Shown piece after piece: positions 15,016-52,239 of a stretch of DNA of 64,000 bases. Source of the stretch: Candidatus Staskawiczbacteria bacterium (GTDB taxonomy: Bacteria; Patescibacteriota; Minisyncoccia; Minisyncoccales; Staskawiczbacteraceae); NCBI GenBank assembly GCA_963778905.1, contig CAVZWH010000014.1:1254-65253 (forward strand), given 5' to 3'. How positions within the stretch are numbered: the first letter of the stretch is position 1; each line of letters begins with the position of its first letter. The notes below the pieces were generated by a model. That model searched no databases and was not told where the DNA came from. It saw only the letters and a program-made list of their open reading frames with translations. The position numbers and the translations under genes were made by a program.

Positions 15016-16062
15016 TTAAGAAACGTTAATCCAAAATCTATTTTTGAAATAATGCTGAATTTTGTGTGTATTGGCATGGGACAGAAATCCAAGATATGAC
15101 TGCAACGATTGGAGAAGCGAATTTCTGGAAATAAGTCCTTGATTGTATTTTTTTATTCTTGATTCAAATTTTTTTATAATTCTCTTTTTTGTTTTTGTTC
15201 TGACCAATCTATGCTTTTGAAAAACTACATAGCCAAGAAAATCTATTCCTTGGCTCGTTTTTCGTATTTTTGTTTTCTCTTCGTGAATTTTTAACAAAAG
15301 ATTTTCTTCTAAGAAATCTATTATTTGCGGCACAAGATTTTCTAAATATTTTCTATTTTCCGAAAGTATCAAAAAATCGTCTGTATAGCGAAGATAATAT
15401 TTTACTTTTAGTTCTTGTTTTATAAATTTATCAAGCTCGTTTAGATAAATATTGGCAAAAAGCTGAGAAGTTAAGTTTCCAATAGGAACTCCTTTATTAA
15501 TGCCCAACACAGAATAACTTGACGAAAAGCTTGATATAATCTGCTCTAAAAGCCAAAGTGTATCATTCTCCTTTACTTTCTTTTTTAAGATTGTGAGCAG
15601 AACATTATGGTCTATTGTGTCAAAAAACTTTTTAATGTCGCACTTCAGAGAAAAGCATGAAACCTTATTATTTTTGCTTACTTTTCTTAATATGCTTTGC
15701 AAAAAATCCACTCCTTTATGAGTGCCGTAGCCCTCCCTGCAAGAAAAAGATGCGGAGATAAAGCCAGCTTCAAAGATGGGATTTAGAACCTGGAAAACAG
15801 CATGGTGCAAAATGCGGTCTAAAACTTGCGCCTTATGGATGTTTCTTGGCTTCGGGTCTGAAATATTAAAAGAAATGTAATTTGAATGTTTGTAGGTTTT
15901 GCTTTTTAGCTCTCTGTGCAGTTTAAATATATTTTCTTCAAGGTTCCATTCAAAAAGCTGAACATCTTTTTTGTTTCTTTTGCCGTTTTTAAATTTATCC
16001 CAGGCTAAAAATAGGTTCTCTGAAGAAGTAATCTCGCTAAATAGGTCTCTATAAATCTTCAT
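15016..16062 (-). CDS. DGR-type reverse transcriptase
   Basis: RT motifs including YTDDFLIL, plus the DGR-diagnostic IGNLTSQLFANIYL motif ([ILV]GxxxSQ). Start moved to Met19 (MKIYRDLF...), because the longer ORF would overlap the divergent avd start. Confidence 0.9.
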   Translation of the reverse strand: MKIYRDLFSEITSSENLFLAWDKFKNGKRNKKDVQLFEWNLEENIFKLHRELKSKTYKHSNYISFNISDPKPRNIHKAQVLDRILHHAVFQVLNPIFEAGFISASFSCREGYGTHKGVDFLQSILRKVSKNNKVSCFSLKCDIKKFFDTIDHNVLLTILKKKVKENDTLWLLEQIISSFSSSYSVLGINKGVPIGNLTSQLFANIYLNELDKFIKQELKVKYYLRYTDDFLILSENRKYLENLVPQIIDFLEENLLLKIHEEKTKIRKTSQGIDFLGYVVFQKHRLVRTKTKKRIIKKFESRIKKYNQGLISRNSLLQSLQSYLGFLSHANTHKIQHYFKNRFWINVS

Positions 16063-16091
16063 AATAAAAAAATAACTAATTAATAAAAAAT

Positions 16092-16445
16092 ATGACAGAA
16101 GAATTTGATATACCAATATTTAAAAAAGTTTATGATTTGTATAAAACGTTTTATGCTTTCAGGACTACGGTTCCAAAACAAGAAAAATATACTGTCTGGC
16201 AAAAATCTGAAAATCTGATTTTGGAAATCTTGGAAGGGATATTATCGGCCAGCTATAAACATAAATTTGAGAAAACTCCCATATTAGAAAAAACTAGTCT
16301 AAAGCTTAATGTCCTCCGTGTTCTTATCAGGCTGATGAAAGATATTAAAGCAATCGATAATAAAAAGTATTCCTTGTTAGAGGAAAACATAGATGAAATT
16401 GGAAGGATGCTTGGCGGATGGCTGCGATCCACCGTCAGCAGATAG
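16092..16445 (+). CDS. avd: four-helix-bundle protein, Avd-like DGR accessory protein
   Basis: 117 aa, all-helical, ends ...EIGRMLGGWLRS as in Avd/23S-IVS four-helix-bundle proteins. Lies between TR and RT but on the opposite strand. Confidence 0.75.
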   Translation: MTEEFDIPIFKKVYDLYKTFYAFRTTVPKQEKYTVWQKSENLILEILEGILSASYKHKFEKTPILEKTSLKLNVLRVLIRLMKDIKAIDNKKYSLLEENIDEIGRMLGGWLRSTVSR

Positions 16446-17067: not shown

Positions 17068-17979
17068 TTACTGCGGGGCGAAGAACGACGAGGAGCCATA
17101 GCGGTCGTAGGCAATGCCGACATACCCCGTGCCGAACCCGACCTCGCCGACGCGGAAGAAGAAGCACGGAGCGCGGCCAAACCGGCCCGAGCCATCATCG
17201 CAAAACTCGTCGCCAGCGCAATCGATGTCCAGCTCTTCCCAGCGAACGAGTCGCTCGGGATGAGTCAGGATAATGGAACCGACTGCGAGACTGGTGAGGC
17301 CGAACTCGTTGGTCTTAAAGACCTCGCGAGCCCGACGTACCGAACGTCCGCGGTGGCGCATGCCGAGCTGACCAGCGATGATCAGGATGTCGCCCTTTTG
17401 CGTTTGGGTGATCTGATTGATCATCTGTGCCGTGCGAGTGTGAACTCGCAGGTGAGCCGTGTCGATCTGGCCTTGGCGGTAGTTGTAGAACGACCGCGAA
17501 CCAGCGACCTTCTCGTGAACCAGTTGGACAGCGCGGCAGTACTTCTCGGTCGGGTCTTTGACCTCCGGGAAAAACCTGGAAGCCAAAGCATCAACCGACG
17601 GAATGGCGAACCATCCTTCGGCGCCTTCAGGAAGTTCGGGAAGATTTTTCGCGAACTCAAGGGCTTGACTCGGGTCGAGGTTGAAGATCGCGGCAAGTGC
17701 CTTGATCTGCGCCTCGATCTGCTTGGGCCCCTTGTACTCCTTGGGGTACGTGTAGCTGGAACAAACTTCTTCGTTCTTGAACCTGTCGGTGAGACAATTC
17801 TCGGCGATGAAGCTGCTTACCAGATCGGAAAGACCCGGAGCTTCGTTAACTCGCTGAGATTCCTCCTCGGACAGTCCGGCCTTGTTGTAGGCAGCCTCGA
17901 CAACCGAGATGAACTTGAGACCCTTTGGGTCCCGAGCTGTAACAATAGACGGAGCCAATGTCGTAGACATCGGAGCCAT
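17068..17979 (-). CDS. DGR variable (target) protein, family unknown
   Basis: 303 aa; GGAGAAAGG Shine-Dalgarno; the C-terminal roughly 49 codons are the VR. No signal peptide seen, no domain recognised by eye. GC is far above the window background. Confidence 0.85.
   Translation of the reverse strand: MAPMSTTLAPSIVTARDPKGLKFISVVEAAYNKAGLSEEESQRVNEAPGLSDLVSSFIAENCLTDRFKNEEVCSSYTYPKEYKGPKQIEAQIKALAAIFNLDPSQALEFAKNLPELPEGAEGWFAIPSVDALASRFFPEVKDPTEKYCRAVQLVHEKVAGSRSFYNYRQGQIDTAHLRVHTRTAQMINQITQTQKGDILIIAGQLGMRHRGRSVRRAREVFKTNEFGLTSLAVGSIILTHPERLVRWEELDIDCAGDEFCDDGSGRFGRAPCFFFRVGEVGFGTGYVGIAYDRYGSSSFFAPQ
17070..17217 (-). repeat. DGR variable repeat (VR)
   Basis: See the TR entry. This is the 3' end of the target ORF and abuts its stop codon. 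Confidence 0.9.
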
Positions 17980-20094: not shown

Positions 20095-22092
20095 ATGAAA
20101 AAACTTCCAAGTTTTTCTCAATGGAAGCAAATTTTTAAGATATTAAAAGGAACTGAAAGAATATTTTTTTTAGTTTTTGTTGGTTTAGCTTTGATATCTG
20201 CAATTTATCTTGCAACTGATTTTTATATAAATAATACAAAAACAGCTCCTGCCTATGGCGGAAGTTATACGGAAGGAGTTGTTGGCCAGCCACGATTTAT
20301 AAATCCTATTTACGGAGAGACAGATGACGTTGACAGAACATTAATTGATTTAGTTTATTCGGGGCTGATGGCATATGACAAAGATGGAAAAATAATTAAC
20401 GACCTGGTAAAAAGTTATCAGGTTTCTGATGATGGAAAAACTTATACTTTTCAGTTAAAAGATAATCTTTACTGGCAAGATGGAATGCCCTTAACGGCTG
20501 ACGATGTTATTTACACAATAAAAACAATTCAAAATTCCGATTACAAAAGTCCCCAAAGAGCAAATTGGCTTAACGTGGATGCAGAAAAAATATCCGACAA
20601 ATCTTTTTCTTTTTCTCTTGATGCCCCATATAATTCTTTTTTAGAAAACTGCACGGTAAAAATAATTCCTTCTCATATATGGGAAAAAGTTTTGCCTGAA
20701 AATTTTGCTTTGTCTACTTATAATTTACAACCTATTGGTTCCGGCCCTTATACTCTTTCGGGATTGGAACAAACAAATACTGGTTTTATAAAAAACCTAA
20801 GTTTAACAGCCAACAACAAATATTACAATAAAGTGCCTTATATATCTAACATTTATTTTCAGTTCTTTGCAAACAAAGATGACCTGATTAAGGCTGCCAA
20901 CCAAAAAACAATTGATGGATTTTCTATCACAGATTTAGATGACAATGAGGCTTTGGCTGAAAAACAAGTTCGCCAGGGCTGGTCTGCAAATGAAAAATTT
21001 GATGTTTACTCTTTTACAATGCCAAGATATTTTGCCGTGTTCTTTAACACTCAGAAATCAAAAATTTTATCGGACAGCAATATAACGCAGGCTCTTAATT
21101 ATTCGGTTAACAAACAAGAGTTGGCACAAAAAATAAGCGACTCGTTCAAAGAAAAAATTTCTGTTGTTGACTCGCCAATTCTTCCTGATTATTTTGGCTA
21201 TGCGCAGCCTACAATAACTTATGATTTTAATACAGACACAGCAAACAAACTTTTAGACAAATCTGGATATGTGGATTCGGGCAATAATACAAGGGCAAAA
21301 GCAAATGATAAAAAACCAGCTTTTCAATTCAAAAGTTATTTGTCTCAAGGATCCAAAGGAAACGAAGTTGTGGAGCTGCAAGGATGTTTGGCAAGATTGG
21401 ATCCAAGCTTTGCAACTCTTTTGCAGGGAGAAACCAGTGGAAAATATGGAACAGGAACCGGAAACGCAGTAACAGCGTTTCAAAAAAAATATATGCCCGG
21501 CGTGCCTTCAACTGGCGAGGTTGGAGCAGGAACAAGAAAGGAATTAAACCAACTTTGTCTGGTTCCCCAAGCCAATTCTTTGCCATTGAAGTTTACTTTA
21601 ACTACCATAGACCAGCCTCAGCTTGTTATGGCGGCTAACCTTCTGAAAGATTACTGGCAAAAAGTTGGGGTCACCGTAGACGTAAAAGCATTGGATTTAT
21701 CAGACTTAAAAGACGCAATTAAAAACAGAGATTATGATGCCTTGCTTTACGGTCAAGCTCTTGGAAGCCTGCCCGATTTATATCCTTTTTGGCATTCTAC
21801 GCAAATAAATGATCCCGGATTAAATCTTGCAGAATATCAAAATAAAAATGTCGACCAATTGTTAAAAGATTCCAGAGAAACGCAGGATGAGCAAGCAAAA
21901 GCGCAAGATTACGAAAAACTGCAAGACACAATACTTTCAGACGCCCCTGCCCTGTTTTTATACAACCCTGATTACATTTATTGGGTTTCAGAAAAAATAA
22001 AAGGCGTAGACACAACAAAAATTGTCGACCCGGCAAAAAGATTTGCTAATATAGAAAATTGGTACATACAAACCCGAAGAGTATGGAAATAA
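20095..22092 (+). CDS. family-5 (OppA/DppA-like) ABC substrate-binding protein with an inserted peptidoglycan-binding domain
   Basis: 665 aa; N-terminal TM and SBP_bac_5-like sequence throughout. The insert GSKGNEVVELQGCLARL...TGNAVTAFQKKYMP...GEVGAGTRKELNQL looks like PG_binding_1. Confidence 0.75.
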   Translation: MKKLPSFSQWKQIFKILKGTERIFFLVFVGLALISAIYLATDFYINNTKTAPAYGGSYTEGVVGQPRFINPIYGETDDVDRTLIDLVYSGLMAYDKDGKIINDLVKSYQVSDDGKTYTFQLKDNLYWQDGMPLTADDVIYTIKTIQNSDYKSPQRANWLNVDAEKISDKSFSFSLDAPYNSFLENCTVKIIPSHIWEKVLPENFALSTYNLQPIGSGPYTLSGLEQTNTGFIKNLSLTANNKYYNKVPYISNIYFQFFANKDDLIKAANQKTIDGFSITDLDDNEALAEKQVRQGWSANEKFDVYSFTMPRYFAVFFNTQKSKILSDSNITQALNYSVNKQELAQKISDSFKEKISVVDSPILPDYFGYAQPTITYDFNTDTANKLLDKSGYVDSGNNTRAKANDKKPAFQFKSYLSQGSKGNEVVELQGCLARLDPSFATLLQGETSGKYGTGTGNAVTAFQKKYMPGVPSTGEVGAGTRKELNQLCLVPQANSLPLKFTLTTIDQPQLVMAANLLKDYWQKVGVTVDVKALDLSDLKDAIKNRDYDALLYGQALGSLPDLYPFWHSTQINDPGLNLAEYQNKNVDQLLKDSRETQDEQAKAQDYEKLQDTILSDAPALFLYNPDYIYWVSEKIKGVDTTKIVDPAKRFANIENWYIQTRRVWK

Positions 22093-22670
22093 ATTTGAAA
22101 AAATTTACACCTGATGTTCGCTATTTAGATGATATGCGCGAAGTTTTGTTTGACAAAGATTTTGCAAAAAATTCTCCAAATGTCCCTTTGTATTTTATGT
22201 ACAGAGGTTTAGATAAAAAAGATGGACTAAGATATGACATCACAATTATTCCGGCAAAAATGCTTGGCGATGAATTTAATAAAACAAAAGGGCATTATCA
22301 TGTCGGCGCGTATCAAGAGCTTTATATGGTTTTGCAAGGAACAGCAATATATTTAATGCAGAAAAAAAACTCCGACGACAAAATTAAGGATGCTTATTTT
22401 GTTAAAGCAAAAAAAGGAGATTCTATTATGATTCCTCCATACTATGGACACGTTACGATAAATCCTTCGGAAACTGAAGAATTAAAAATGGCAAATTGGG
22501 TTTCGGAAAATTGCAAAAGCGATTATTCTTTTTTTGAAAAAATGCACGGCGCTTGTTATTATTATACAAATCAAGGCTGGATAAAAAACGAAAATTATAA
22601 ATTGATTCCAGAACTTAGACAAGAGCAACCTCAAAAATCTCTTCTGCAAGATTTAAGTTTTCTAAAGTAA
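22083..22670 (+). CDS. pgi: cupin-type glucose-6-phosphate isomerase
   Basis: About 195 aa from MEINLKKF; cupin metal motifs TKGHYH and PPYYGHVTINP, as in archaeal-type cPGI. Confidence 0.65.
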   Translation: MEINLKKFTPDVRYLDDMREVLFDKDFAKNSPNVPLYFMYRGLDKKDGLRYDITIIPAKMLGDEFNKTKGHYHVGAYQELYMVLQGTAIYLMQKKNSDDKIKDAYFVKAKKGDSIMIPPYYGHVTINPSETEELKMANWVSENCKSDYSFFEKMHGACYYYTNQGWIKNENYKLIPELRQEQPQKSLLQDLSFLK

Positions 22671-22671
22671 A

Positions 22672-22800
22672 CCCCGTTAGAAGTCTTAATAACCTGATAA
22701 AATTTTTTGCTGGTTAAAATTACAAATGGCGAAAAATATTGAAATGAGATTGCAAAAATATTTTCAAAAAAAATATTTTTGCTCAAGACTTCTAACGGGG
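22672..22800 (+). mobile_element. MITE-like element, copy A (129 bp)
   Basis: TIRs CCCCGTTAGAAGTCTT / AAGACTTCTAACGGGG. TAAA direct repeats at 22668-22671 (which contains the pgi stop codon) and 22801-22804. Internal AT-rich hairpin. Confidence 0.65.
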
Positions 22801-38848: not shown

Positions 38849-38972
38849 CCCCGTTAGAAGTCTGACTACTAAAAATGAGCATTTACTAAGCAGAATATTG
38901 AAAATCAATTATTTCAGCGTATATGAAAAATAATTTATATAAATTATTTTTCATCAAGGACTTCTAACGGGG
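38849..38972. mobile_element. MITE-like element, copy B (124 bp)
   Basis: TIRs CCCCGTTAGAAGTC / GACTTCTAACGGGG; TCAA direct repeats at 38845-38848 and 38973-38976; internal AT hairpin. Lies 2 nt past the ftsW stop codon. Confidence 0.6.
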
Positions 38973-43805: not shown

Positions 43806-45740
43806 CTAGTGCGAAGTTGCAATTGTTGGCACCTGTATACACAATGCCTCAGACCCCGAATTCTGACATAATCCTGAAACAGTTAACGATGCTGTTTTGT
43901 ACGACGGAGACAAACCGAGCAGGTTGTCGCCCTGGTAAACTGCTTCTAAGGTGTGAGTTCCTGAGAAGGACGGAGTGTAGGTGTAGGTGGCTGTGCCACT
44001 TGAGTTTGTGGTAACAGGAGTGCTGTTGATGAGGGTTGCAGAATCATTGTCTCTAAATGTAATTGGTTCGCCTGCAACAGCTGAAGACAGCGTGGCTGTC
44101 AGAGTTACTGCGGTTCCCACTGAAATGCTTGATGAGCTTAAAGTAAAGGTGTTGATGGTAGTTGGGTTGCTCTGGGCCGGAGTCTGCACGCACAATATCT
44201 CAGAGCCCGAGGTTGAACAGCTGCCGGAAATGGCAAGCTGGGCTGTTTTGTACGACGGAGACAAACCGAGCAGGTTGTCGCCCTGGTAAACTGCTTCTAA
44301 GGTGTGAGTTCCTGAGAAGGACGGAGTGTAGGTGTAGGTGGCTGTGCCACTTGAGTTTGTGGTAACAGGAGTGCTGTTGATGAGGGTTGCAGAATCATTG
44401 TCTCTAAATGTAATTGGTTCGCCTGCAACAGCTGAAGACAGCGTGGCTGTCAGAGTTACTGCGGTTCCCACTGAAATGCTTGATGAGCTTAAAGTAAAGG
44501 TGTTGATGGTAGTTGGGTTGCTCTGGGCCGGAGTCTGCACGCACAATATCTCAGAGCCCGAGGTTGAACAGCTGCCGGAAATGGCAAGCTGGGCTGTTTT
44601 GTACGACGGAGACAAACCGAGCAGGTTGTCGCCCTGGTAAACTGCTTCTAAGGTGTGAGTTCCTGAGAAGGACGGAGTGTAGGTGTAGGTGGCTGTGCCA
44701 CTTGAGTTTGTGGTAACAGGAGTGCTGTTGATGAGGGTTGCAGAATCATTGTCTCTAAATGTAATTGGTTCGCCTGCCACAGCTGAAGACAGCGTGGCTG
44801 TCAGAGTTACTGCGGTTCCCACTGAAATGCTTGATGAGCTTAAAGTAAAGGTGTTGATGGTTGTTGGGTTGCTTGGCGGTGGTATCTGTACACATAACAA
44901 CATAGATCCTGAGGTGGCCAGCACACCACAACCTGTTACATTAAAAGGCCCTATTTGAGATTGAGACGGCAGAGTTTCTATTTGAGCGTCCCCATTATAT
45001 TTGGCCTGAATAGTAATATTGCCTGTTGCGCTAAAAGTAATATAATAATATGCTCTAGCTACTCCGAGAGAATCAGTGGTTGCTGTTCCTATGGTAATTG
45101 GCGAACCTGGATTTGTTATGTCAGTAAAAGTGATTGTTTGGCCAGCTATTACCGGACCATTTGTGTATTTCAAAGCAGCCGAAAGATTAATTGTAGAACC
45201 CTGTGTTATTGGTAAAGGAGAAGCTGTAAAATTAATTATTTGGGTTTGCGCTGCGTTGCTTATGACAAAACTTGTTATATGATTATAATCTGTTCCTGAA
45301 GATTCTTGCATGCTGTTATTTAACAAATTATCTGTCGCAGAAATGTCAACCCAGTAAGTGGCGTTGGGATCCCAAACAGAAGTATTAGAAACATCAATAA
45401 TCAAGCCAAAAGTGCCGTCTCCGGCGGCGCCATCGCGATGCGAGCCGTCGTCGGACATTGTGCCATCTATAGAATATACGTCATTCATATATTGCACAGG
45501 ACTGCTGTTGGGCACCTCAATGTTTGCTACTGAAGAGTAAACTCCGGAAACATCCGTGACATCAGCCGTTATAACAATAAAATTAGAATATTTATAAACT
45601 TTAACGTTTGCAACGCTTGGATATGCAGTTCCGCCGGGAGGGACAACTTCAAAAGTTGGCATGGCATAACATGCATTAAAAGAAAAACAGAAAATAAGCG
45701 ATACAAAAATTAAAATTGTATAAAAGAAAAACTTTCTCAT
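43806..45740 (-). CDS. secreted Ig-like-repeat surface protein (candidate pilus-associated adhesin)
   Basis: 644 aa; signal peptide; four Ig-like modules, of which the last three are near-identical 117-aa repeats. Immediately downstream of the minor pilin genes. Confidence 0.7.
   Translation of the reverse strand: MRKFFFYTILIFVSLIFCFSFNACYAMPTFEVVPPGGTAYPSVANVKVYKYSNFIVITADVTDVSGVYSSVANIEVPNSSPVQYMNDVYSIDGTMSDDGSHRDGAAGDGTFGLIIDVSNTSVWDPNATYWVDISATDNLLNNSMQESSGTDYNHITSFVISNAAQTQIINFTASPLPITQGSTINLSAALKYTNGPVIAGQTITFTDITNPGSPITIGTATTDSLGVARAYYYITFSATGNITIQAKYNGDAQIETLPSQSQIGPFNVTGCGVLATSGSMLLCVQIPPPSNPTTINTFTLSSSSISVGTAVTLTATLSSAVAGEPITFRDNDSATLINSTPVTTNSSGTATYTYTPSFSGTHTLEAVYQGDNLLGLSPSYKTAQLAISGSCSTSGSEILCVQTPAQSNPTTINTFTLSSSSISVGTAVTLTATLSSAVAGEPITFRDNDSATLINSTPVTTNSSGTATYTYTPSFSGTHTLEAVYQGDNLLGLSPSYKTAQLAISGSCSTSGSEILCVQTPAQSNPTTINTFTLSSSSISVGTAVTLTATLSSAVAGEPITFRDNDSATLINSTPVTTNSSGTATYTYTPSFSGTHTLEAVYQGDNLLGLSPSYKTASLTVSGLCQNSGSEALCIQVPTIATSH
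43885..44880. repeat. tandem repeat, 351-bp unit, about 2.8 copies
   Basis: Shadow ORFs at 43987, 44338 and 44689 are spaced 351 nt apart, and the first two are identical over 100 aa. I saw one synonymous difference (44778 C versus A). Confidence 0.9.
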
Positions 45741-46611: not shown

Positions 46612-47346
46612 TTATTGTGCGTTAAGATTTCTTTGTGAGACCGTTGTTTGGATTGTTCTTGTCGGCTCTTGGCTGTCTCCTGGAATTTGGATTTGCATAG
46701 TAACGGTTACTCTTGGCTGAAAATATTCTAAGCCGGTGTCTTGGTCGTCAATAGGATAACCAGCGCCATAAATTCCATTAAACCCGTCTATTCCAAACCT
46801 GATTGAATTTATATTAAGCTCTTTTGAAGTAAGAGCCACTGCGTTTTCGTCGCCAACTTTGGCATAGGGCGAGTATGTTTTTAATTCTTTCAAAATATAC
46901 GGAGTTGAGCTTGTGTCTAAATAAAATTCTTGGCAAACGGGAACTCCTGAATTATCTGTATTGGATTGGTTCAAAAATTTTATGCCGGTAAAAAAACTGG
47001 CGCCGGAAATGGTAACTGGCCTGGTGAGCAGATATGTGTATCCTGAATAATATGTCTCGGGATTCGGGCTTAAAGAAGAGTTATCAACAAGACAATTTCC
47101 CGCAGTATCTTTTGTCGCCATTCTCATTGCTTTTGACATATATTCTTCAACATAACTCACTTGATTCAAAAGTTCCTGCTCGGCCAAAATTTTCTTCTGG
47201 TGCTGAACAATTGAAATAAAAATTCCTATAGCAGCTCCGATGACAAACATAAATACGCCCATAACCACAATCAATTCTATTAAAGTAAACCCCGTTAGAA
47301 GTTTGCCATCCTTAGAATATTTTTTTGTAGTTATTGATGATTTCAT
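46612..47346 (-). CDS. minor type IV pilin (PilW-like) whose leader is encoded by a MITE-like element
   Basis: Starts at ATG 47346: MKSSITTKKYSKDGKLLTG|FTLIELIVVMGVFMFVIGAAIG. The ORF-track TTG start at 47406 is inside the element and less likely. Confidence 0.7.
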   Translation of the reverse strand: MKSSITTKKYSKDGKLLTGFTLIELIVVMGVFMFVIGAAIGIFISIVQHQKKILAEQELLNQVSYVEEYMSKAMRMATKDTAGNCLVDNSSLSPNPETYYSGYTYLLTRPVTISGASFFTGIKFLNQSNTDNSGVPVCQEFYLDTSSTPYILKELKTYSPYAKVGDENAVALTSKELNINSIRFGIDGFNGIYGAGYPIDDQDTGLEYFQPRVTVTMQIQIPGDSQEPTRTIQTTVSQRNLNAQ

Positions 47347-47419
47347 TGTTAATTTGTGGCGGTAGAAGTCCAGCTGGACTTCTACCGCGATATTATTTAA
47401 TCGCAAACTTCTAACGGGG
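47290..47419 (-). mobile_element. MITE-like element, copy C1 (130 bp), inside the 5' end of a pilin gene
   Basis: TIRs CCCCGTTAGAAGTTTG / CAAACTTCTAACGGGG; TAAA direct repeats at 47286-47289 and 47420-47423; 100% identical to copy C2. Confidence 0.7.
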
Positions 47420-47450
47420 TAAACCTTTTGATTTTCTCTGCATTTTGAAA

Positions 47451-48050
47451 TTAACTATTATAGTTGTACCAATTATAAAAATATTCTTCTGCTGTAATAG
47501 AGCCGGGAGCGCCAGTTGGATTCAAAACATTTGGCTTTTCATCCCAATAAACAGTGACAGCAATTTTTGCAACGTAATCAATGCCAGGTAAAAAACTTAC
47601 TAAAATTTGCCTCCTAAATTTTGTCTTCTGGCCGCTGCTGTAATTATAAAATCCGTTTGTATCTATTTTCAAATAATCATTTTGGTATGTAGCCATTGCA
47701 AAAGGTACTGTTGCGCCCGAACCAGTTGTGTAATCTGCTTCGCATCCTCCAATATCGCTTGTGCAAGCAGAAAGGCTTTGAAGCCAATCAGTGGTGGTGC
47801 CAGAATCCGAGGCAAGCCAGTTGGTATCTCTTATATTTCTTGCTATCTCTATGCCCTCCTGAGCTAAATAAGCTGCTGTAAGACGGTCGGAGGCATCGGC
47901 AGTTAAAACAACTATCATGGAAAAAGCGCCATAAATGCCCACAATAGCAACGGACAAAATAAAAATAGAAATAATCAGTTCAATAATTGTAAACCCCGTT
48001 AGAAGTTTGCCATCCTTAGAATATTTTTTTGTAGTTATTGATGATTTCAT
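47451..48050 (-). CDS. minor type IV pilin (PilV-like) whose leader is encoded by a MITE-like element
   Basis: Starts at ATG 48050: MKSSITTKKYSKDGKLLTG|FTIIELIISIFILSVAIVGIYGAF. Confidence 0.7.
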   Translation of the reverse strand: MKSSITTKKYSKDGKLLTGFTIIELIISIFILSVAIVGIYGAFSMIVVLTADASDRLTAAYLAQEGIEIARNIRDTNWLASDSGTTTDWLQSLSACTSDIGGCEADYTTGSGATVPFAMATYQNDYLKIDTNGFYNYSSGQKTKFRRQILVSFLPGIDYVAKIAVTVYWDEKPNVLNPTGAPGSITAEEYFYNWYNYNS

Positions 48051-48123
48051 TGTTAATTTGTGGCGGTAGAAGTCCAGCTGGACTTCTACCGCGATATTAT
48101 TTAATCGCAAACTTCTAACGGGG
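47994..48123 (-). mobile_element. MITE-like element, copy C2 (130 bp), inside the 5' end of a pilin gene
   Basis: Same sequence as C1; TAAA direct repeats at 47990-47993 and 48124-48127. Confidence 0.7.
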
Positions 48124-48147
48124 TAAACCTTTTGACATATTGTTTTA

Positions 48148-48759
48148 TTATTTTACTTCTATAAGACCGGATGTATTTATGGATACGGTCCTTGACGGAA
48201 TTGAAGAATCAGAGCTTACGGCCAAAACTATTTCTATATCGGTTTGCCCGCTGCTAATATTTTCTATTGATAAATATGGATTAGGCGGACTAAAATTTAT
48301 ACTGGTCCACTGTTGGTCAATATTATTAACAGCTTCTATATATACACCTACTTTATCCTCGTTAACATTCACCGTATCAATAATATAATCGCCGCTTACA
48401 CATGAAGGATCTGAAAGAGTATACTGATAATCTGGATTGCCAACCGGACACGAGTCGCCGTATATTATATATTGTTGCGGCGTATCAAGATTTATATAAA
48501 GCCCATAGCCGCCAACCTTCACTAATTGGCCGGTATTATCTGTTATTTTGACTCCCGACAACCCTAAATCCTGAACCCTCCTTAAATTTTGAGCTAATTT
48601 GTAAGTGGCTCTTGAAAGCGCGTATTCCCTTTGAATTTTAGGAAAATTAGAAATTAAAATTGCAGAAAATATTGCAATAATAAAAATTACTACAATAAGT
48701 TCAATTAAAGTAATTCCTTTTTCTAACTTTTTTATATTTGGAATAAATTTAAGTACCAT
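48148..48759 (-). CDS. minor pilin (FimT/GspH-like)
   Basis: 203 aa; ...KKLEKG|ITLIELIVVIFIIAIFSAILI prepilin N-terminus. Confidence 0.65.
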   Translation of the reverse strand: MVLKFIPNIKKLEKGITLIELIVVIFIIAIFSAILISNFPKIQREYALSRATYKLAQNLRRVQDLGLSGVKITDNTGQLVKVGGYGLYINLDTPQQYIIYGDSCPVGNPDYQYTLSDPSCVSGDYIIDTVNVNEDKVGVYIEAVNNIDQQWTSINFSPPNPYLSIENISSGQTDIEIVLAVSSDSSIPSRTVSINTSGLIEVK

Positions 48760-49490
48760 TGAATTATCTGATTTCCGTAAAGCATTGCCACAAATGTTCC
48801 CGCAATTAAAAATGGGCCAAAGGGTATTTCGCTTTTTAGGTTCTTTCCCTCAAAAACCATCAATATTACTCCTATTATAGCACCAAAAAAGAATGCCAAA
48901 AATAGAGCCGTAAAAACATTTGGCAAGCCCAGCAGAAGACCCATTAAAATAGCCAATTTTACATCTCCAAAACCCATCCACTTCCCTTTTGAAATTAAAA
49001 AAATTATTAGAAAAAATGCAGATGCGATTATCGCCGCCAAAAAATTATTTAATATCAAATGAAAATTAAATAAATCGTAAATCAGAGCAATCGCAATCGC
49101 TGGGAATAAAACTTTGTCAGGAATTATATAGTGTTTTAAGTCGTAAATAAAAAGAACAATCAAAAAACAAATTATTATCAAATAAAAAATTGAATATAAA
49201 ATATTTTGCGGATTGAAAAATAATATAAATAAAATACCTGTTGCCAGTTCTACTAAAGGATATTGGATTGAAATTTTATTTTTGCAATATCTGCACTTGC
49301 CTTTCAAAAATAAAAAACTAAAAACAGGAAACAAATCTTTCCACGACAAAGCGTGTTTGCAGTGCGGACAGAAAGATCGGCCATTCAGACTTTTTTTCTG
49401 CTCTAACCTGTAAATTACGCAGTTCAAAAAGCTTCCAATGCAAACCCCAAATATAAATATAAAAATGTAAATTAAAAATTCTAAAATCAT
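48732..49490 (-). CDS. pilD: prepilin peptidase (A24 family)
   Basis: 252 aa; Cys-pair motif (CPHCKH...CRYCKN), multiple TM helices and a GFGDVKL active-site region. Confidence 0.9.
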   Translation of the reverse strand: MILEFLIYIFIFIFGVCIGSFLNCVIYRLEQKKSLNGRSFCPHCKHALSWKDLFPVFSFLFLKGKCRYCKNKISIQYPLVELATGILFILFFNPQNILYSIFYLIIICFLIVLFIYDLKHYIIPDKVLFPAIAIALIYDLFNFHLILNNFLAAIIASAFFLIIFLISKGKWMGFGDVKLAILMGLLLGLPNVFTALFLAFFFGAIIGVILMVFEGKNLKSEIPFGPFLIAGTFVAMLYGNQIIQWYLNLFQI

Positions 49491-49579: not shown

Positions 49580-50035
49580 TTACGGACACACAAAAGTACC
49601 AGTATTACAAGTAGTACCTGTTAGACAAGTAGCAAATTCAGATTTTAATACCCCGGTTAAATCTATACACCACCAAACAGCGGCATTGCTACTTGGAGCA
49701 CAAGCACAAAATGCAGTAGTTGAAGCCCCGCATGTAGCGGTTGATTGATATGTTGTAACAGCAGTCCATGCAGACGCACTAGTAGTACCAGCGCAAGGAG
49801 TAGCAGCACTACCGGCAGTGTTAGCATGGGCAGTAAAAGCAAGACCCGAAGAAGTAGTATTGTCTGATATAACGCCCGTTTGTACTGTGTGCAATTCCTC
49901 CTCCATTGCTCCGTCTTTTGCTTTGTTTATATATTGAGTAACATTAACAAGCACAATCGCTGCTAAAATTGCGATAATTGCAATAACCACGATTAACTCG
50001 ATAATTGTGAAACCTTTTGATTTATTTGTCTTCAT
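49580..50035 (-). CDS. type IV pilin
   Basis: MKTNKSKG|FTIIELIVVIAIIAILAAIVL; Cys-rich C-terminal half; followed by a terminator. Confidence 0.85.
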   Translation of the reverse strand: MKTNKSKGFTIIELIVVIAIIAILAAIVLVNVTQYINKAKDGAMEEELHTVQTGVISDNTTSSGLAFTAHANTAGSAATPCAGTTSASAWTAVTTYQSTATCGASTTAFCACAPSSNAAVWWCIDLTGVLKSEFATCLTGTTCNTGTFVCP

Positions 50036-51030: not shown

Positions 51031-52239
51031 TTAAATTGTGCCAAGAGCGCCGTAAAGCGGCTCTATTACAGAAATTGCCAAAAGGGCAACGATTATTCCT
51101 AAAAAAATTATTAATGCCGGCTCCAAAAGCGCTGTAAAAGTTTCCACCGCCTGCTGAACATCTTTCTCATAAAAATTAACTATCTCCATTAAATTTTTAT
51201 CCAATTTTCCTGTCTCTTCTCCAACCTGAATCATCTGCACAACAAACGGCGGAGCATAGTCGGGATATTTTACCAATACCGAACTTATTTTTTCTCCTTC
51301 TGAAACTTTTTCTTCTGTTTCTGTCAAAATTTTCTTGTAAACAAAATTGTCAACCGTATCTCTGGTAATTTTTAGCGCGTTATTTATTGAAAGCCCGGCT
51401 GAAATTAAAGTGGAAATATTTTCGGCAAAATTAATAAGAAATATTTTTTTCAAAAATCCGCCGACAAATGGAATTTTTAGAGATAATTCATCGTATCTTT
51501 TTTTGCCTTCTTTGGTTGTAAAATAATAAACTATAAACAAAACCAAAAGAATAAAACCAACCATCACAATCCAGCCATAATTTGCCAAAAAGCTGTAAAA
51601 ATTAATCATCATTTGTGTAAACATCGGGGGCTTGTTGGTGGTTTGTTTTAACAAATTGACAAGCTGAGGCATAACAAAAAGTATGACTAATGTAATTACA
51701 ACAAACAAAACAACTATAACAAATATAGGATAAATCATTGCTCCGGTTATTTTGGAGGTTATATCGTGCTCACGTTCTAAGTGGTCTGAAAGATAATAAA
51801 GAGACTCAGAAATCTTTCCCGATGCCTCGCCAGTTTTTACTAAGCTTACATAAAAAACATTAAAAACTTCGGGAAACGTGGCAAACGCCTCTGACAAAGA
51901 ATTTCCCTCTTCAACTAACTGAGAAATTTTTAAGATCTTTTGCTTAAAACTTGGATTTCTTATCTGCACCGCCAAGCTTTTCAAACTTTGAGTAACCGGC
52001 ACGCGCGACTGCAACATTACAGATAACTGCCTTGAAAAAATGGCTAAATCTTTTTTGGAAACCCTGTTCAAAAAACTGATATTTTCTGTGCGCAAAATCA
52101 AGGGAGTTTCCTCTTTTATAGATGTGACAAAAATATTGTATTTTTGCAGAAGAAGAGCGGCCGCCTCTTTAGAAGAAGCTTCCACTGTGCCCGATTCTAT
52201 TTTGCCCTCCTTGTCTCTGGCTTGATAAATATATTTCAT
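51031..52239 (-). CDS. pilC: type IV pilus platform protein PilC (GspF family)
   Basis: 402 aa; duplicated GspF domains and 3 TM segments. Confidence 0.9.
   Translation of the reverse strand: MKYIYQARDKEGKIESGTVEASSKEAAALLLQKYNIFVTSIKEETPLILRTENISFLNRVSKKDLAIFSRQLSVMLQSRVPVTQSLKSLAVQIRNPSFKQKILKISQLVEEGNSLSEAFATFPEVFNVFYVSLVKTGEASGKISESLYYLSDHLEREHDITSKITGAMIYPIFVIVVLFVVITLVILFVMPQLVNLLKQTTNKPPMFTQMMINFYSFLANYGWIVMVGFILLVLFIVYYFTTKEGKKRYDELSLKIPFVGGFLKKIFLINFAENISTLISAGLSINNALKITRDTVDNFVYKKILTETEEKVSEGEKISSVLVKYPDYAPPFVVQMIQVGEETGKLDKNLMEIVNFYEKDVQQAVETFTALLEPALIIFLGIIVALLAISVIEPLYGALGTI

Follow-up and report, generated by a model that had tools for sequence, protein, structure and literature searches.

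In a 64,000-nt stretch of the genome of a Candidatus Staskawiczbacteria bacterium (contig CAVZWH010000014.1 of assembly GCA_963778905.1), referred to here as the window, a cluster of type IV pilus genes lies on the minus strand, and two adjacent minor pilin genes in it each carry a 130-bp element that resembles a miniature inverted-repeat transposable element (MITE). Both elements lie between the relic of a short leader and the FT(L/I)IEL N-terminus of the mature pilin. It appears that they were inserted at the codons for Gly(-1) and Phe(+1) of the prepilin cleavage site, that they supplied a replacement start codon and leader so that the genes were kept, and that the two copies were homogenised by gene conversion. 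We give this account as a whole a probability of about 0.72.

The layout described in an earlier note on this DNA, read on the coding strand, is present with all its features. In minus-strand order copy 1 reads ATGCAGAGAAAATCAAAAGG-TTTA-(130 bp)-TTTA-CTTTAATAGAA and copy 2 ATGTCAAAAGG-TTTA-(130 bp)-TTTA-CAATTATTGAA, and each element has perfect 17-nt terminal inverted repeats (TIRs; CCCCGTTAGAAGTTTGC / GCAAACTTCTAACGGGG). The right terminus ends in ...CTT CTA ACG GGG and the target-site duplication gives back TTT AC, so that the junction is again Gly/Phe-Thr (a slash marks the cleavage site) and Glu(+5) is unchanged. From the ATGs at 47346 and 48050, the sequence MKSSITTKKYSKDGKLLTG runs in frame into FTLIELIVV and FTIIELIIS. 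This 19-codon leader is the only reading frame in the element, which has no transposase coding capacity. Two public proteins, P0121 and P0001, are 100% identical to the window proteins and are annotated from the in-element ATG. All the features of a type IV prepilin (class III signal peptide) are found: the leader is basic and ends in Gly(-1), Phe(+1) and Glu(+5) are in place along with a hydrophobic helix, and the genome encodes an A24 peptidase. The mature parts of both pilins are intact and 50-73% identical to homologues, and the Pfam N_methyl matches begin at residue 19 in both.

According to the mechanism that we propose, the element would take as its target the TTTA within GGN-TTT-ACN, which encodes Gly(-1)/Phe(+1)-Thr(+2) in a type IV minor prepilin gene. 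Its end together with the duplicated TTT AC would make the junction ...L-L-T-G/F-T again and its A-rich interior would bring an ATG in the frame of that junction, so that the mature pilin would stay intact, now preceded by a new Lys-rich leader of 19 residues with Gly at its end. The old start and short leader would stay upstream as an open reading frame (ORF) of 7-10 codons, stopped by the TAG in the upstream terminus. We infer that initiation takes place at the in-element AUG, for which an unpaired A-rich stretch should suffice, because the genome is nearly without Shine-Dalgarno sites: a Shine-Dalgarno-like motif was found for only 1 of the 47 window ORFs of at least 150 codons, and starts, the in-element ATG included, lie in A/T-rich sequence. 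The neighbouring prepilin peptidase would then cut off the new leader; this enzyme mainly needs Gly(-1) in type IV pilin processing. Copies surviving at the pilin position would be only those whose orientation provides an in-frame start, or those that are stop-free and in frame.

To judge from the leaders of orthologues, the long leaders are insertions, acquired independently in different lineages, and not ancestral, because most orthologues of both pilins have ordinary short leaders, including ones that match a relic. Empty-site orthologues, which the earlier note had proposed to look for, are abundant: among the best 120 homologues taken for each pilin, short leaders are present in 81/120 for pilin 2 and 70/120 for pilin 1, and element-derived leaders in about 15-20%. 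The leader MSKG/FTIIEL of four pilin 2 homologues matches the relic at 48138 exactly and MMRQKSKG/FTLVEL of one pilin 1 homologue comes near to the relic MQRKSKG, which bears out the interpretation of the upstream short frames as remains of the original leaders. Three other pilins of the cluster also have short leaders (MQNKG/FTLIEL, MNKG/FTIIEL and MKTNKSKG/FTIIEL). Presence and absence vary between loci, with an element in the pilin 2 orthologue only (L170/L125), in the pilin 1 orthologue only (L181) or in three pilins (L192). L225 has in its pilin 2 orthologue a decayed element of the window subfamily next to an in-frame relic (MKLRTNRG/F), and in its pilin 1 orthologue an element of a different subfamily. 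Removing the element and one copy of the duplication yields a canonical short-leader prepilin at many loci, for example MNKNNNAG/FTLIEI at L034.

A long leader that is ancestral and has inverted repeats by coincidence, or a duplication created during assembly, would make these insertions illusory. Some type IV pilins naturally have leaders of 15-30 residues, and the neighbouring minor pilin (48148-48759) has an element-free leader of 15 residues. Against an ancestral leader stand the majority of short-leader orthologues and the TIRs and duplications at more than 200 independent loci, and against an artefact the unique sequence flanking copies 1 and 2 and the same architecture in other assemblies, so that we consider either version to be extremely improbable. 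The earlier note had named long-leader orthologues free of inverted and direct repeats as what would overturn an insertion, and the comparison of orthologues came out on the side of insertion.

Further evidence comes from a scan of metagenomes with the right terminus followed by TTTAC and NNT NNT NGA as query, which is blind to orientation, the termini being perfect inverted repeats. The junction was present in 106 metagenome contigs, nearly all of them encoding prepilin N-termini of the form ...LLTG/FT(L/I/V)(I/V)E. The longer pilin-site elements (about 94-137 nt) have stops inside and bring their own ATG with a Lys/Asn-rich leader, for instance MQNKKNKLLTG, MENKITNNKKDRLLTG and MKSSIITKKYxKxGKLLTG. 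An in-frame stop is found in 21/34 distinct longer elements, and an in-frame ATG follows the last stop in all of these (21/21), versus only 7/31 when the same pilin-site elements are flipped as a control. The short elements (mostly exactly 62 nt, or 22 codons with the duplication) are stop-free and simply read through as M..K(G)FTPLE....LLTG/FTLIE, the left terminus encoding Pro-Leu-Glu and the right one Leu-Leu-Thr-Gly.

Within the window subfamily (copies 80-87% identical), the ATG is kept in five copies. At L034 and L148 the original in-element ATG is gone and a different in-frame ATG is there instead; the non-pilin copy L044 has no in-element ATG. Old copies with decayed termini retain Gly(-1), as PLTG, PLRG, LITG or LLAG. 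Since the ATG is kept or replaced, Gly(-1) is retained and the mature parts are intact, these patterns argue for purifying selection on the start codon, on the absence of stops and on Gly at -1, and thus for genes that are probably functional. That the insertion swaps start and leader and leaves the gene undestroyed, as had been supposed, agrees with the flipped control, the replaced ATGs and the retained Gly(-1).

The element region is predicted to fold into a very stable RNA (-62 kcal/mol, z = -10.3) with an 18-bp terminal stem and a 13-bp hairpin, in which the in-element AUG lies in an unpaired A-rich loop. Comparison of related copies shows compensatory changes at 5/13 pairs of the internal hairpin, whose arms resemble the terminus (GGTAGAAGTC vs CGTTAGAAGT); this hairpin could serve as an additional site of transposase binding or be an RNA element. 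For the antisense strand, a hairpin resembling a terminator is predicted. Consensus scans of the window copies for an outward sigma-70 promoter gave nothing convincing, and the TATAAT-like boxes of the main subfamily lack a properly spaced -35 box.

Such a structure around the start region could also be expected of genes that the insertions have inactivated, leaving young pseudogenes or untranslated genes with a fortuitous in-frame ATG. The original start is indeed severed from the gene, its relic is frame-shifted, and no Shine-Dalgarno site precedes the in-element ATG. Yet such sites are nearly absent genome-wide anyway, and the reading frames are intact over 199 and 244 codons at the level of identity to many homologues given above. 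The in-frame ATG of 21/21 comparable elements, its regeneration where lost, and the persistence of Gly(-1) beyond the decay of the termini in old insertions likewise make inactivation of both genes quite unlikely.

The elements could instead be regulatory devices and not neutral passengers. By being excised or inverted they might reversibly switch expression on and off or change its level, or else they might, as an RNA structure or terminator, make the minor pilins independent of translation and transcription upstream. The only usable start codon lies between inverted repeats, the compensatory changes indicate a conserved internal hairpin, the antisense hairpin is terminator-like, and the elements interrupt the otherwise tight gene-to-gene spacing of the cluster; furthermore, Correia elements in Neisseria supply promoters and RNase III sites (PMC2649163). 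We nevertheless hold this to be unlikely, as the flanks are direct duplications and not extensions of the inverted repeats, all 21 stop-containing pilin-site copies lie in the ATG-supplying orientation despite the orientation-blind search, no recombinase gene is evident among the scanned neighbours of the locus, and old copies with decayed termini are no longer able to move. On the first three of these grounds an invertible DNA switch (inverton) was rejected.

Alternatively, translation might begin at the relic ATG, with ribosomes crossing the element by bypassing or frameshifting, taking off at GGT-TTA and landing at GGG-TTT, as in gene 60 of phage T4. Matching sequence is present on either side of the element (GGTTTAC / GGGGTTTAC), a stop codon follows soon after the take-off site, and a strong stem would join the two sites. 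The gap of 134 nt, however, far exceeds that of about 50 nt in T4 gene 60, the nascent peptide would have only 4-7 residues, the universal in-frame ATG within the elements would be left unexplained, and short forms are translated through. The probability of bypassing is close to negligible.

The two window copies are 100% identical over their 130 bp. Identity continues for 12 nt upstream (TCAAAAGGTTTA) and 5 nt downstream (TTTAC), and the common block measures 163 nt at 97% identity. Strict choice of the target or gene conversion between paralogues had been put forward in the earlier note as alternatives, of which the second fits the window copies better. Most likely they were homogenised by gene conversion or concerted evolution between the adjacent genes, rather than produced by two recent independent insertions, because they are fully identical and have a 1-nt-short flank in common, because orthologous copies elsewhere are only 80-87% identical, and because pilin 1 of L225 carries another subfamily. 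The same 80-87% implies that the insertions are not all recent. Strict sequence targeting, on the other hand, is not supported, since non-pilin TTTA insertions have no need for GG before TTTA as in the pilins. Two very recent independent insertions of an active copy are a possible origin of the identical pair. Near-identical elements in both of two adjacent minor pilins also occur elsewhere, at L199 and L227.

The window elements are, as far as structure and distribution tell, non-autonomous MITE-like DNA transposons of a large and apparently undescribed family with the termini CCCCGTTAGAAGT...ACTTCTAACGGGG. The 16-mer terminus, with up to 3 mismatches, has 9 matches in the window against 0.44 expected, and all 4 window copies have TIRs and 4-bp direct flanks. 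These matches define a third and a fourth member, which have only the termini in common with the pilin copies and are of similar length (129 and 124 bp). The TAAA duplication of the third member (22672-22800) includes the stop codon of the upstream gene for a cupin-type glucose-6-phosphate isomerase (22059-22670), and a tRNA-Leu(CAG) starts 9 nt downstream.

A search of related genomes, which the earlier note had suggested, was carried out with one genome per species and the pattern CCCCGTTAGAAGT-N(90-115)-ACTTCTAACGGGG, and the insertion contexts were recorded. It returned at least 124 elements of 115-141 bp in at least 118 loci, nearly all in metagenome-assembled genomes of Patescibacteria from many lineages. 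Among the matches listed, a perfect 4-bp duplication flanks 79/108 elements tested; its sequence is variable (TTTA, TAAA, TCAA, TGAA, TATG and others), mostly T-N-N-A or TATG. A 13-nt core of the terminal repeat is conserved in all copies, subfamilies have only their ends in common, and nested and tandem copies are present. Small size, TIRs, duplications that are constant in length but not in sequence, dispersed copies and sites that differ in occupancy are characteristic of MITEs, and the mobility that had been ascribed to the element is supported by TIRs, 4-bp duplications, many dispersed copies and differences at orthologous pilin sites.

Several variants of the family are worth recording. 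Tandem or nested copies occupy one site at L167, L216, L126, L222 and L035; at L167 three short units stand in tandem before one pilin, and at L035 a 29-nt terminus-loop-terminus mini-copy takes the usual position of the internal hairpin, which suggests that the internal hairpins of the family derive from nested termini. The exact 62-nt forms (L119-L224, e.g. L134, L122, L142; L133, L144, L169) encode in-frame FTPLE....LLTG with only the termini conserved. They are found in contigs of 44-54% GC, probably outside Patescibacteria, and the genome match of L067 is labelled Omnitrophota; one such form lies inside an RluA-type pseudouridine synthase, at a chance GFTLVE motif.

Other origins and kinships were also considered. 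No element match was found in IMG/VR that would point to a phage. Rfam gave only tRNAs for the window at gathering thresholds and no credible match for five element-bearing loci at E up to 1. An integron attC site (GTTAGAA/TTCTAAC cores) was rejected, since its cores would stand in the opposite order and the elements are flanked by direct duplications of variable sequence. A conserved peptide running from the host ATG into the element was inconsistent, being MPR* in the TATG class and variable in the TGAA class. A candidate autonomous transposon at L199 (1972 bp, matching TAAA flanks) proved to be two adjacent pilin genes, each with an element.

The phenomenon is broader than pilins, the family being found mainly on start codons and stop/start overlaps. 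Among the genome-scan matches listed, 41/106 insertions (39%) overlap a true start codon, versus 2.0% of control sites with the same tetramers. The dominant TGAA class is inserted on an ATGA stop/start overlap, where the left copy of the duplication retains the TGA of the upstream gene and the terminal G together with the right copy forms a GTG start; in the TATG class the right copy retains the ATG. Orientation is biased, the hairpin lying upstream in 33 and downstream in 11 of the matches listed. At the non-pilin loci L060 and L074, too, the gene downstream can be read in frame from an in-element ATG.

A second, unrelated MITE-like family has reached the same TTTA in both adjacent minor pilins of L227 (698-1650). 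Its termini are CCCAGCACCACTTTTGC...GCAAAA.TGGTGC.GGG with a TTTA duplication, and its leaders there end in ...RKNGAG/FT and ...RKSGAG/FT; leaders ending in ...KSGAG or ...KNGAG are also those of the proteins P0051, P0069, P0079, P0146, P0191 and P0228. Common to both families are a CCC...GGG end and a 4-bp duplication, the features that are needed to rebuild Gly/Phe-Thr. A small GIY-YIG gene is located just upstream of the second-family site at L227.

To explain the recurrence at pilin sites we favour tolerance, the position being a safe harbour, combined with spread by gene conversion. One subfamily is almost confined to pilin sites. A more far-reaching idea, which is tentative, is that some subfamilies are portable prepilin-leader cassettes that spread by transposition into GGN/TTTAC or by gene conversion and are kept because they uncouple or retune the expression of minor pilins, and that the family at large supplies Shine-Dalgarno-less Patescibacteria with start sites on a mobile element. 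The downstream half of the element would then be a ready initiation region, made up of an unstructured A-rich stretch, an ATG, a Lys/Asn-rich leader and the terminus-encoded Leu-Leu-Thr-Gly, and gene conversion would run through the conserved N-terminal coding region. A mobile start-site provider would explain both the siting on start codons and ATGA overlaps and the in-frame ATGs at L060 and L074.

Several points weigh against insertion with replacement of start and leader followed by homogenisation. The pilin-site census required the junction in its query, and many of the matches may be orthologues or paralogues of few events. The in-element ATG is presumed to be used and the product presumed to be cut by the prepilin peptidase, and mobility is deduced only from structure and polymorphism. 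No autonomous transposase with these termini was found in the window and the 1.5 Mb of fetched loci, where terminal-repeat pairs 0.3-4 kb apart were considered; the only long pairs in the fetched loci are adjacent pilin genes. The Pfam N_methyl scores of both proteins are just under the curated cut-off. Outside the element the flanks agree over short stretches only (12 and 5 nt), and the intact paralogue at 49580-50035 shares 11 of the 12 upstream bases (TCAAAAGGTTT), so that this share of the identity is due to paralogy. Finally, both window relics are 1 nt out of frame, the left flank being GGTTTA where an in-frame Gly-Phe would need GGTTTTA; this caveat, raised before, is real, and a simple insertion history needs an extra deletion. 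The same deficit is seen at L152 and L065, many other relics are perfectly in frame, and we take the missing nucleotide to be decay of the relic.

Features of the pilin locus and of the repeat family in the window are collected in Table 1. The cluster also includes a PilX-like gene and a large Ig-repeat protein (644 aa, 43806-45740), encoded downstream of the pilins, in which three near-identical tandem units of 351 bp are found and the reading frames repeat every 351 nt. The element-free minor pilin just upstream (48148-48759) has the leader MVLKFIPNIKKLEKG/ITLIEL, whose coding sequence overlaps the peptidase gene at its 3' end; in L225 the orthologue of this pilin begins with MKEKG/ITLVEI. 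Elsewhere in the window, a cassette resembling a diversity-generating retroelement (DGR) consists of an RVT_1 reverse transcriptase (15016-16116, minus) beside a bAvd-like accessory protein (16092-16445, plus), near a stretch of about 47% GC (genome about 35%) with a 303-aa ORF (17068-17979) that has no Pfam match.

Table 1. Positions in the window of the pilin-site elements, their parts, the genes concerned and the other family members
Feature	Positions	Strand	Remarks
MITE-like element copy 1, 130 bp, 5' end of minor pilin gene 1	47290..47419	-	TIRs, 4-bp TTTA duplication, 100% identity to copy 2
MITE-like element copy 2, 130 bp, 5' end of minor pilin gene 2	47994..48123	-	TIRs, TTTA duplication
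Element-encoded start and 19-codon leader MKSSITTKKYSKDGKLLTG of pilin 1	47290..47346	-	Public annotation has the same start (P0121)
Element-encoded start and 19-codon leader of pilin 2	47994..48050	-	Public annotation has the same start (P0001)
Target-site duplication copy 1, gene-proximal	47286..47289	-	TTTA on coding strand; with the next C, Phe-Thr codons TTT AC
Target-site duplication copy 1, gene-distal	47420..47423	-	TTTA on coding strand; at the end of the relic leader
Target-site duplication copy 2, gene-proximal	47990..47993	-	
Target-site duplication copy 2, gene-distal	48124..48127	-	
Upstream TIR copy 1	47403..47419	-	CCCCGTTAGAAGTTTGC on coding strand; holds the TAG ending the relic frame
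Downstream TIR copy 1	47290..47306	-	GCAAACTTCTAACGGGG on coding strand; encodes (G)KLLTG, GGG = Gly(-1)
Upstream TIR copy 2	48107..48123	-	
Downstream TIR copy 2	47994..48010	-	Encodes leader end ...KLLTG
Internal perfect palindrome (30 nt) copy 1	47359..47388	.	GCGGTAGAAGTCCAG/CTGGACTTCTACCGC; arms resemble the terminal repeat
Internal palindrome copy 2	48063..48092	.	As in copy 1
Relic start and short leader of pilin 1, now MQRKSKGLPR* (ATG 47443)	47411..47443	-	Orthologue leader MMRQKSKG/FTLVEL (P0189)
Relic start and short leader of pilin 2, now MSKGLPR* (ATG 48138)	48115..48138	-	Orthologue leaders MSKG/FTIIEL (P0026, P0078, P0092, P0094)
Minor pilin gene 1, 244 aa from in-element ATG	46612..47346	-	Mature part begins FTLIELIVVMGVF
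Minor pilin gene 2, 199 aa from in-element ATG	47451..48050	-	Mature part begins FTIIELIISIFILS
Prepilin peptidase (Peptidase_A24)	48732..49490	-	Same gene cluster; enzyme expected to cut Gly(-1)/Phe(+1)
PilC-type platform protein	51031-52239	-	
Third family member, 129 bp	22672..22800	.	Termini as pilin copies, unrelated interior, TAAA duplication
Fourth family member, 124 bp	38849..38972	.	TCAA duplication; intergenic, between upstream region of rpoB-like gene and 3' end of ftsW/rodA-like gene

Insertions into coding sequence are normally destructive, and the geometry of this element makes one position within a gene a safe harbour. Its terminal GGG and the 4-bp duplication at TTTA restore the cleavage junction of a type IV pilin and the element replaces start and leader, an outcome that seems to have been reached repeatedly and in at least two unrelated element families. 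This would explain the unexpectedly long and similar leaders (...LLTG/FT, ...SGAG/FT) of pilins in Patescibacteria, and genes of this kind will be mis-handled by gene callers and signal-peptide predictors. Nature has here also tested, in effect, what minimum of a class III leader is enough for the prepilin peptidase. The preference for start codons and ATGA overlaps bears on the way translation starts in genomes lacking Shine-Dalgarno sites, since the duplication preserves both stop and start there. Type IV pili are considered central to the episymbiotic way of life of these bacteria, so that a rewiring of pilin expression by mobile elements could have a bearing on attachment to the host. The impression in the earlier note that the arrangement had not been described still stands: we found no paper on the terminus sequence, on LLTGFT or on MITEs in Patescibacteria, and could not find a description of a MITE whose terminus and duplication rebuild a signal-peptidase cleavage site and supply start and leader, recurrently and in several families.

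Among known systems, bacterial MITEs are alike in their size of 115-141 bp, perfect TIRs, short duplications, dispersed copies free of transposase, likeness between subfamilies in the ends only, and nesting and tandems. The window family differs in having no identified cognate insertion sequence (in the 1.5 Mb of loci), in its tie to start sites and stop/start overlaps (39% vs 2% of controls, among the matches listed), and in a 4-bp duplication that regenerates a start (GTG or ATG) and keeps the upstream stop. In a 2024 review of MITEs, in-frame fusions are mentioned, whereas start codons, signal peptides and pilins do not come up.

The palindromic elements of Rickettsia (RPEs), selfish DNA found in frame in protein-coding genes (Ogata et al. 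2000, as summarised in PMC10969869), are mini-elements tolerated in coding sequence when in frame and stop-free, so that the host protein gains a peptide. The forms of 62 nt (with the duplication, 22 codons) in pilins and the RluA-type pseudouridine synthase behave similarly, as do the 65-nt, 86-nt and similar forms. In contrast, the window copies (130+4 = 134 nt) fail to be read through, the relic frame stopping at the terminal TAG, and bring their own start instead; the peptide added is a leader expected to be cleaved off. Insertions here converge on the codons of a signal-peptidase cleavage site, whereas RPEs are found in scattered surface loops.

Correia elements duplicate a TA dinucleotide, whereas the duplication here is 4 bp, and have other termini; we know of no case in which they supply start codons or signal peptides. 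They are similar in their size of about 100-150 bp, their long terminal repeats and their location near gene starts (PMC2649163). They are co-transcribed, form long RNA stems and can change the expression of adjacent genes (PMC2649163).

Both IS1380/piggyBac-like elements and type IVb prepilins offer further points of comparison. To the former there may be a resemblance, to be taken as a lead: 4-bp duplications at A/T-rich T...A targets, and termini starting with CCC and containing TAGAA, to be compared with the piggyBac end CCCTAGAAAGATA and its TTAA duplication. The targets here are not fixed to TTAA, however, and no transposase of any family is linked to the elements. Type IVb prepilins likewise have a basic leader of 15-30 residues that ends in Gly(-1), and behind it comes a hydrophobic N-terminal helix that contains Glu(+5), but the long leader of the window pilins would have been acquired from a transposon and not inherited, the leaders of their orthologues being 4-8 residues long.

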